64,000 bases of DNA from a virus, in IMG/VR virus record IMGVR_UViG_3300046804_004438, positions 46,387 through 110,386 of that record. One strand, given 5' to 3'. The notes under the pieces are model-generated. The model did no database searches, was not told the origin of the DNA, and saw only the letters and a list, made by a program, of their open reading frames with translations. The position numbers and the translations under genes were made by a program. Position 1 is the stretch's first letter; the number at the start of each line of letters is the position of its first letter. Shown here piece after piece: positions 11,485 through 46,819 of this stretch.

Positions 11485-11589
11485 TTAGTGCTTGTACAGA
11501 TACAAACACAGCCATAAAAACATAAGCCACGGAGTAGCCCATAACACAAAAACAAAAGTGGCCCAGATATTAAGAATAAGACGAAACAT
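11485..11589 (-). CDS. 34-aa hydrophobic membrane peptide (not in ORF track)
   Basis: AGGAG RBS; MFRLILNIWATFVFVLWATPWLMFLWLCLYLYKH; own promoter upstream. Confidence 0.65.
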   Translation of the reverse strand: MFRLILNIWATFVFVLWATPWLMFLWLCLYLYKH

Positions 11590-11609: not shown

Positions 11610-11640
11610 ATAATACGATCTAAAGAAAATAAAGTCAACA
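11610..11640 (-). promoter_or_regulatory. Early sigma70-type promoter
   Basis: TTGACT-17-TATTAT. Confidence 0.75.
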
Positions 11641-11651
11641 ATTTTTTTAAT

Positions 11652-11684
11652 AAAAGGGGAGAGTTTATTCTCTCCCCTTTTTTT
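11652..11684. terminator. Intrinsic terminator closing the G-free gene
   Basis: AAAAGGGGAGAG/CTCTCCCCTTTT hairpin flanked by A and T runs. Confidence 0.85.
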
Positions 11685-11688
11685 GTTT

Positions 11689-11871
11689 TTATGAATTAAG
11701 AGAAGGATGTAGAGGGAAGGATTGAGGATAGTAGTGAGTGTAGTAGTTTATTAGATTTTGGTAGTTAATATTATATGGAAGATTATATGTTTGAAGTTGT
11801 TGTAAGAATTGTATTTTTTGTTGGATTGTGTTAAGGGATTGGAATGTTGAGTAGATATAATTGAGGTCCAT
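11689..11871 (-). CDS. 60-aa protein encoded by a G-free reading frame
   Basis: AAGGAG RBS, own promoter and terminator; only two G in the ORF (ATG G). Confidence 0.65.
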   Translation of the reverse strand: MDLNYIYSTFQSLNTIQQKIQFLQQLQTYNLPYNINYQNLINYYTHYYPQSFPLHPSLNS

Positions 11872-11893
11872 TTCAGTTCTCCTTTACCTTTAT

Positions 11894-11924
11894 AATATCC
11901 GATATTTTAATAAAAAAGGCAACA
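11894..11924 (-). promoter_or_regulatory. Early promoter of the G-free gene
   Basis: TTGCCT-17-GATATT. Confidence 0.7.
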
Positions 11925-11939
11925 ATTAATTTTTCGTGT

Positions 11940-11970
11940 AAAATCAAGAGGTTAGCTAACCCTTTGAAAA
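11940..11970. repeat. Imperfect palindrome at the centre of the divergent early promoters
   Basis: AAAATCAAGAGGTTAG|CTAACCCTTTGAAAA. Confidence 0.65.
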
Positions 11971-11986
11971 CACACAATTTTTTTTC

Positions 11987-16384: not shown

Positions 16385-16615
16385 TTATTCATCCTCACCA
16401 TAATCAAAACCATCTTCATCATCTTCATACTTATCTTCGTCTTCATCATCCCATACATATCTGCTCAAAACATTGTCAAATACATCATCTTGACCTTCGC
16501 TATCTGAAGCATCTCTTGTGCCAACAAGGTCAAACAATTTTCTATATATTTCGCCTCTTGTTGCATCTTCTCTAACAGATTCTGTTAAAACTTCAATTAG
16601 TGCATCCCAATCCAT
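16385..16615 (-). CDS. Small very acidic protein
   Basis: Asp/Glu-rich tail. Confidence 0.6.
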   Translation of the reverse strand: MDWDALIEVLTESVREDATRGEIYRKLFDLVGTRDASDSEGQDDVFDNVLSRYVWDDEDEDKYEDDEDGFDYGEDE

Positions 16616-46204: not shown

Positions 46205-46819
46205 TTATTGTTTAACCCAATACCAGACATTGTCTCGGCATGTTGCAATTGGAGGATAATTACCTTCTGATCTAAATTTATTTAGAGCAGAATTTACTGC
46301 CTGCATTCCATAATCATGGCCTGAAAAAATTCCACCTTTTCTCACTTTAGGATAGAAATTTTTACAATCTCTGTATACAGATTCTTCTGAATGATCTCCA
46401 TCTATAAAAATATAATCTAAAGATTCATCGGGATAATCACCTAGAATGTTTTCACATCTATCTTTGATAAGTAAAATTCTACCTTCAAATTGTTTTGTAT
46501 TTTCAATAGCTGCTTGATGTTGTGCTGACAGAATATCTTCACCAACAAAAGTATTCCAATCCTGAAAAGGAATATATGGATCTACTCCAATCAGATGAAG
46601 ATTGGGTATATTGCTTAAAAAATTATAAATGTTCCATCCACTAGCTACTCCTATTTCCATTCCAACTATTGGAGTGTTAATATCAGGGGATAGTTGTTTA
46701 ACAACATTAATCAAATCAGGAGCAGAAAAATATTTTTTACTTTCCCATTCATTTCTATCTATAAGTTCAGAAATCAACCAAGGATAAAGTTCTGATGTAG
46801 GGTTGTCTATCACACTCAT
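46205..46819 (-). CDS. Class I SAM methyltransferase (Methyltransf_24-like)
   Basis: EIGV, FIDGDH and GGIFSGHDY motifs. Confidence 0.85.
   Translation of the reverse strand: MSVIDNPTSELYPWLISELIDRNEWESKKYFSAPDLINVVKQLSPDINTPIVGMEIGVASGWNIYNFLSNIPNLHLIGVDPYIPFQDWNTFVGEDILSAQHQAAIENTKQFEGRILLIKDRCENILGDYPDESLDYIFIDGDHSEESVYRDCKNFYPKVRKGGIFSGHDYGMQAVNSALNKFRSEGNYPPIATCRDNVWYWVKQ

Follow-up and report, generated by a model that had tools for sequence, protein, structure and literature searches.

An early gene of an uncultured T4-like phage with almost no guanine in its coding strand

The window analyzed here, a 64,000-nt stretch (positions 46,387 to 110,386) of the IMG/VR record IMGVR_UViG_3300046804_004438, comes from an uncultured freshwater T4-like phage whose contig of 110,386 bp has a GC content of 36% and is estimated to be 68% complete. 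T4-type genes in the window comprise gp32, gp59, T4 RNase H, PhoH, and primase-like proteins; ribonucleotide reductase, 2OG-Fe(II) oxygenases, and a PstS-like protein are also encoded there. Compared with gp32 of T4-like cyanophages, the gp32 of this phage shows about 55% identity, and DNA searches of cultured phage records returned no DNA-level match to the region. The locus under study is organized as follows, in the direction of leftward transcription:

11894-11922, minus strand: predicted early sigma-70-type promoter, with TTGCCT (11922-11917), a 17-nt spacer, and GATATT (11899-11894), read from the sequence
11872-11893, minus strand: 5' leader with an AAGGAG ribosome-binding site (11884-11879) 7 nt before the ATG, containing G, read from the sequence
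11689-11871, minus strand: 60-codon open reading frame (stop included), a three-helix protein of a family of about 50 amino acids, ending in TAA
11678-11867, minus strand: message without G (template strand without C), 190 nt, starting in codon 2 and reaching the base of the terminator
11652-11681, no single strand: predicted intrinsic terminator hairpin of 8 to 12 pairs, GGGGAGAG / CTCTCCCC, two-way, each strand having its T-run, from folding
11610-11638, minus strand: promoter of the next cassette, TTGACT-17-TATTAT, directly after the terminator and driving a 34-amino-acid open reading frame

The plus strand from 11678 to 11867 presents no C over 190 nt (T 81, A 55, G 54, C 0), and the runner-up among C-free runs measures 59 nt, in the window and equally in the whole 110,386-bp contig. 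The base count thus confirms the run to which an earlier note on this DNA had drawn attention. With 19.9% C on the plus strand, the chance of such a run is (0.80)^190, or about 6e-19 per position, which makes the 1e-14 of that note a conservative estimate. The run was also correctly described as something other than a simple repeat, with Tandem Repeats Finder reporting just a 2-copy 12-mer with a score of 36. Read on the minus strand, the open reading frame (11871..11689) has two G in 183 nt, both within ATG-GAC, and after D2 the residues of the protein are limited to F, L, S, Y, P, H, Q, I, T, N, and K. Its RNA is 29% C and about 0% G, and that of the relative L006 is 15% C. About 15 G remain in the leader and terminator of the transcript, which as a whole is not immune to G-directed attack. 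An assembly artifact, which the earlier note had named as a concern, is excluded because the near-G-free relatives L006 and L187 come from other samples, L187 with an identical 5' leader.

The view of the locus as a stand-alone early transcription unit with its own promoter, AAGGAG ribosome-binding site, and terminator is borne out by the sequence, and the unit is a promoter-gene-terminator early cassette. In the predicted fold of the transcript, the terminator hairpin is the sole stable structure; the body of the open reading frame is unstructured, and the centroid contains the terminator only. A pattern search for the 20-nt promoter type TTGCYTTTTTTATNAAAATA retrieved four copies (0.32 expected), all between 11458 and 12241, two of them leftward and two rightward, and a regular-expression search of the whole contig found no further copy in the rest of it. 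With two copies pointing each way, the G-free gene comes first on the left side of a divergent early promoter cluster. The same promoter type drives neighboring genes with 20 to 22% G. The four predicted promoters point away from a short control region in which a palindrome lies near 11940-11975, and the matching control region of a relative (L030:690-790) contains three direct repeats of about 27 nt that are iteron-like. The 34-amino-acid open reading frame of the adjoining cassette (11485-11589, minus strand) is very hydrophobic and is equipped with a promoter of its own and a strong ribosome-binding site; L006 lacks it.

The window open reading frame alone gave no match in a word-based protein search or in a single-sequence locus scan. 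Relatives were found via the neighboring 366-amino-acid gene, small alignments, and a full HMMER search, in which a profile built from the window, L006, and L031 sequences retrieved 77 cluster representatives at E<=1e-3, with 30 at E<=1e-10. The members are usually 44 to 72 amino acids long and share the conserved pattern 'MxLxxIY...NLPYxINYxNLI', and the window protein matches the family over its full length. The family is widespread in uncultured T4-like phages, and its gene is spread across phages sharing only about 39% protein identity. One member, P0011, is 66% identical to the window open reading frame by tblastn (E=9e-25) and shares its proline-rich C-terminal tail; since P0011 keeps this tail despite still having E and V, the tail appears to be translated. 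Among the window, L006, and L187 genes, dN/dS is 0.10 to 0.17, with dS of about 0.7 to 0.9 or saturated. By these comparative measures, the window open reading frame reads as a real, translated gene under purifying selection.

An AlphaFold model based on the family alignment predicts three helices (residues 3-12, 16-28, and 37-47), with a pLDDT of 85 overall and about 95 over residues 1 to 40. No PHROG family matches the open reading frame or 41 family members, and Pfam likewise gives no match. The normal-composition member P0013 found nothing by tblastn in cultured phage records. Foldseek against PDB and BFVD returned nothing at E<=0.001, VIA-align gave Z<=5.2 with generic helical repeats only, and ESM Atlas scores were <=0.85. 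The fold and the family are thus without a known counterpart in the databases searched.

Among the approximately 55 family members with DNA, most have 17 to 27% G in the open reading frame. The G content of the low-G members, and the synonymous third-position G observed and expected in these and in two ordinary members, are as follows:

L190: 16 G in 144 nt (11%); synonymous G 4 observed, 9.2 expected, depleted
L046: 13 G in 141 nt (9%), in a background of 49% GC; synonymous G 2 observed, 8.1 expected, depleted
L044: 13 G in 150 nt (9%), in a background of 48% GC; synonymous G 2 observed, 8.4 expected, depleted
L202: 11 G in 150 nt (7%); synonymous G 2 observed, 8.2 expected, depleted
L006: 6 G in 144 nt (4%); synonymous G 0 observed, 4.8 expected, depleted
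L187: 4 G in 147 nt (3%); synonymous G 1 observed, 5.5 expected, depleted
Window: 2 G in 183 nt (1%); synonymous G 0 observed, 5.6 expected, depleted
L034: synonymous G 8 observed, 10.8 expected, ordinary
L049: synonymous G 9 observed, 7.3 expected, ordinary

In a maximum-likelihood tree, the seven low-G members form one group with support of 90/89, beside the ordinary-G member L031, and the nesting tracks the G content (18, 11, 9/7, and 4/3/1%), a grouping that shared base composition may inflate. The ordinary composition of most members indicates that the purge belongs to one sub-lineage and not to the whole family. The earlier note had counted homologues with ordinary G content against its reading; to the letter such homologues exist, most of the family lying at 17 to 27% G, but the anomaly itself stands. 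The note also asked whether frame and G avoidance persist while the sequence diverges; among the window, L006, and L187 genes, dS is near saturation, and the window and L006 retain zero synonymous G.

A codon comparison with L031 shows how the G was lost. GCA (A) is replaced by TCA (S), CGT (R) by CAA or AAA, GAA (E) by CAA, AAC, or AAT, GTA or GTT (V) by ATC or ATA, AAG (K) by CAA, and TGG (W) by TAC or TAT. The resulting residue swaps (E to Q or N, V to I, A to S, R to Q or K, and W to Y) are conservative, and each removes G. Because all mutation types are used, including G to C, the purge is not explained by one mutational process alone, be it deamination or oxidation. In one sub-lineage, selection removed G stepwise from the coding strand, with the frame and the fold of the protein preserved, and the window gene is the end point.

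Given the window protein and the codon usage of this genome, the probability of finding no G is 3e-4. The pressure against G is not uniform, since L219, a close relative of L044, has an ordinary number of synonymous G (7 in 48 codons, compared with 2 in L044). The family genes of these two relatives (L219:3001-3150 and L044:4001-4150) are about 75% identical, with flanking genes 87 to 98% identical in the comparison of the genomes G001 and G016; divergence is much more rapid in the cassette gene than around it. A second gene of the window served as a control for the method. This gene (16385-16615, minus strand) encodes a very acidic protein of 76 amino acids, with 7.8% C in the coding strand and a C-free run of 94 nt, and it is conserved in G005 and L026. 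Its synonymous C is not depleted (7 observed, 7.9 expected), and as a candidate base-purged gene it was rejected, amino acid composition alone explaining its low C. In the family gene, the absence of synonymous G, together with the replacement of G-requiring residues by similar G-free ones, indicates that G avoidance was selected at the nucleotide level. We therefore consider it very probable that the gene is genuine and that selection against G has recoded it.

The depletion is specific to this gene. With low-G genes defined, among greedily called genes, as those whose G content falls short of 55% of the genome mean, the family gene is the only one in the window contig (G000, 142 called genes) and likewise in G001, a complete genome of 167.8 kb with terminal repeats and 238 genes. 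Among the called genes of G003, G004, and G005, no low-G gene was found; G005, at 73% median protein identity, is without the family gene. In the relatives L023-L030, an unrelated gene encoding 88 amino acids occupies the same slot, first left of the divergent promoters. It has 10 G in 264 nt in L024 (4133-4396) and 19 G in 267 nt in L030 (864-1130), and in both cases 2 synonymous G are present where 11 are expected. The family of this 88-amino-acid protein also occurs in L023, L025, and L027-L029, with 12 members in the alignment and a structure model with a pLDDT of 61. Distant kinship with the window family was considered and rejected, as hhalign gave a probability below 1% twice and BLASTP found nothing. 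The depletion of the 88-amino-acid gene stops at its stop codon, and a gene with normal G follows within about 20 nt downstream, which indicates that the unit protected is the open reading frame. A sole G-poor gene in two genomes, joined by an unrelated G-poor gene in the same slot, argues for selection on the nucleotide and not only on the protein.

The explanation that we tentatively place first is that the G-free message of the open reading frame escapes something that acts on G in RNA. The agent would be a G-dependent ribonuclease or an RNA-modifying toxin, belonging either to the host or to the phage's own host shut-off, and the protein would still be made early in infection while other messages are disabled. 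Such protection would fit a counter-defense or take-over protein, although for a protein with no Pfam, PHROG, or structural match an anti-defense role is something that we purely infer. The gene-specific, graded, and open-reading-frame-limited pattern is consistent with escape at the RNA level, as is the way it travels with the gene among phages of only about 39% shared protein identity. In the partly purged relatives, the surviving G is mostly in GA, so a GA-specific toxin of the CmdT type, the known motif of a G-directed mRNA toxin, is not favored as the driver; a constraint on acidic residues could alternatively account for the surviving GA. Among the genomes G000 to G004, no phage barnase/T1-family G-specific RNase was detected, nor was RegB, for which the control gave no signal anywhere.

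A related explanation, which we rank second and regard as doubtful, places the pressure on the DNA template. In a phage that modifies its cytosines, the C-free template strand of the gene would stay transcribable if the modified base were attacked or removed, or if it slowed the polymerase. The models of escape in the RNA and in the template predict the same sequence pattern. G001, the sole complete genome with a depleted member, encodes a dCMP hydroxymethylase of the T4 gp42 type (PDB 1B49, E=3e-84), and this enzyme is absent from the near-complete normal-G genomes G003 and G004 and from five partial ones, although the association then amounts to one genome against two. G001 also contains a sugar-nucleotide gene cluster beside a glycosyltransferase. 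The hydroxymethylase gene lies at L056:1435-2109 (G001:96615-97289) and is followed by a dCMP-deaminase-like gene. The heptose-nucleotide-like cluster (G001:84-5748) surrounds a GT1 gene and comprises a cytidylyltransferase, a SIS isomerase, a phosphatase, a transaldolase-like protein, and a GHMP kinase, assignments that are a reading of N-terminal sequences and not the outcome of searches. By its predicted gene content, G001 may carry sugar-modified hydroxymethylcytosine. The GT1 glycosyltransferase that adjoins the locus was discarded as a clue to modification, as it occurs with and without the hydroxymethylase.

No dCMP hydroxymethylase was found in the 110-kb window contig, which is missing the part syntenic to G001 59-112 kb, where the hydroxymethylase of G001 resides, and the window phage may therefore have the enzyme; G016, the close relative of G001, stops short of this region as well. 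Several observations weigh against the template. The 110-kb contig has no thymidylate-synthase-like gene, TGT/DpdA, C5-methylase, or TET (Tet_JBP) above the cut-off. The approximately 1,950 genes on hydroxymethylase-bearing contigs, three of these contigs being 56 to 118 kb long, include no low-G gene, and blastn and tblastn comparisons of such contigs with the window lineage gave one 62 to 70% match only, which establishes no link. Even in G001 just one gene is depleted, which shows that a C-free template is no general rule of C-modifying phages, and we know of no such base-purged gene in T4 itself. Furthermore, the non-template strand of the window gene is 29% C and would be fully modified.

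Kinetic or structural explanations come third and also appear unlikely. An RNA without G cannot fold, has no G-dependent pauses, and is independent of GTP, which might make its product the fastest first protein of the infection or allow its synthesis in GTP-poor cells. The lack of predicted structure in the body of the open reading frame agrees with this, as does an enrichment of synonymous C in the window gene (18 compared with 8.5 expected) and in the 88-amino-acid gene of L024 (22 compared with 9.5), and nearly G-free leaders such as the TMV omega leader boost translation. However, C is not enriched in L006 and L187, where A and U are balanced, so that A-U pairing is not minimized in them; ordinary-G homologues serve other phages well; translation itself requires GTP; and no reason emerges why only one gene should need speed.

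That the pattern has no adaptive meaning, and reflects drift, AT pressure, or strand-biased mutation in a small, fast-evolving, low-complexity gene, we consider improbable. The gene is indeed faster than its neighbors (75% versus 87 to 98% identity between G001 and G016), G-requiring residues form a continuum across the family, and the synonymous G of L219 is normal. Nevertheless, not only T but also C and A take the place of G, which no one mutation type fits, and the GC content of the window open reading frame (30%) is near that of the genome. The low-C acidic control gene, unlike the window gene, has no synonymous depletion (7 versus 7.9), zero G is kept through near-saturated synonymous divergence, and an unrelated gene in the same slot displays the same depletion.

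The least probable of all is a non-coding role, either as a Rho-loading or Rho-titrating RNA that is rich in C and free of G, as another decoy RNA, or as an origin DNA element: the window RNA, unstructured with 29% C and no G, has the make-up of a Rho loading site, and the gene adjoins a promoter cluster with a palindrome, but the frame is conserved (dN/dS 0.1 to 0.17), as is the C-terminal tail, the ribosome-binding site is strong, the RNA of L006 has just 15% C, an intrinsic terminator follows directly, the G-free stretch matches the open reading frame and not the intergenic control region, and Rfam 15 gives sub-threshold hits only, all on the terminator hairpin. The decoy or origin-associated RNA proposed by the earlier note is therefore set aside, given that the frame is under purifying selection and the stretch runs from codon 2 to the terminator stem; the 88-amino-acid analogue also speaks against it, since there depletion stops at the stop codon and the operon continues.

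It is possible, taking escape in the RNA together with its template counterpart, that some phage early genes have been rewritten in three letters, leaving the message or the template untouchable by base-directed attack. Nature is not expected to contain protein genes written with only three of the four bases, and this family lets the loss of a base be followed, from 17 to 27% G in most members to 11, 9, 7, 4, 3, and 1% in one sub-lineage. Such single-base selection, extending over an entire message, is here strong enough to confine the protein to 11 amino acids. The source of this pressure would be undescribed phage-host biology, whether G-directed RNA attack, modified-cytosine template damage, or nucleotide limitation. 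If the favored reading is true, it would represent a general new counter-defense strategy, a 'whole-gene nucleotide stealth', and the ordinary and purged members side by side would constitute a natural experiment for finding the agent. The same homologues provide matched constructs, and results from them would bear on how to design messages able to withstand RNA-targeting toxins.

Several known systems share part of this design. Phage genomes avoid restriction sites, and messages without ACA resist MazF; as in these cases of target-site avoidance, selection on the cassette gene acts on nucleotide words through synonymous and conservative changes, presumably to escape a recognizer. In contrast to them, the avoided 'word' is a single base, on one strand, over a whole open reading frame, and the protein is limited to 11 amino acids. 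The TMV omega leader and the synthetic 'G-less cassette' of transcription assays are long, G-free, unfoldable, and transcribable without GTP; they are non-coding or artificial, whereas the window gene is a natural conserved coding frame. Rut sites are C-rich, G-poor, unstructured RNAs of 80 nt or more, a composition that the window RNA resembles with 29% C, 0 G, and no predicted structure. Unlike rut sites, it appears to be translated, judging from dN/dS and the ribosome-binding site, it is followed by an intrinsic terminator, and its C-richness is not conserved in relatives.

Long natural stretches that lack one nucleotide are rare, according to PMC6526412, and the papers searched contain no description of such a phage gene. 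The PeSL cassettes of the T4-type phages RB49 and phi1 (Arbiol et al. 2010, PMC2839356) consist, as summarized in the abstract of that paper, of a strong early promoter of the sigma-70-like type, a small gene whose function is unknown, and a terminator formed by a stem-loop. The window gene differs from these in having a cargo gene purged of one nucleotide, base composition being unmentioned in the PeSL abstract. In other respects the correspondence with what that abstract describes is close: the host phage is of the T4 type, a predicted promoter type is repeated at neighboring cassettes, a predicted stem-loop terminator lies at the border, and the cargo gene is present, absent, or swapped in close relatives (absent from G005, and replaced by the 88-amino-acid gene in L023-L030). 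To the extent covered by the abstract (PMC2839356), the PeSL early cassette is the closest published frame for the gene described here.
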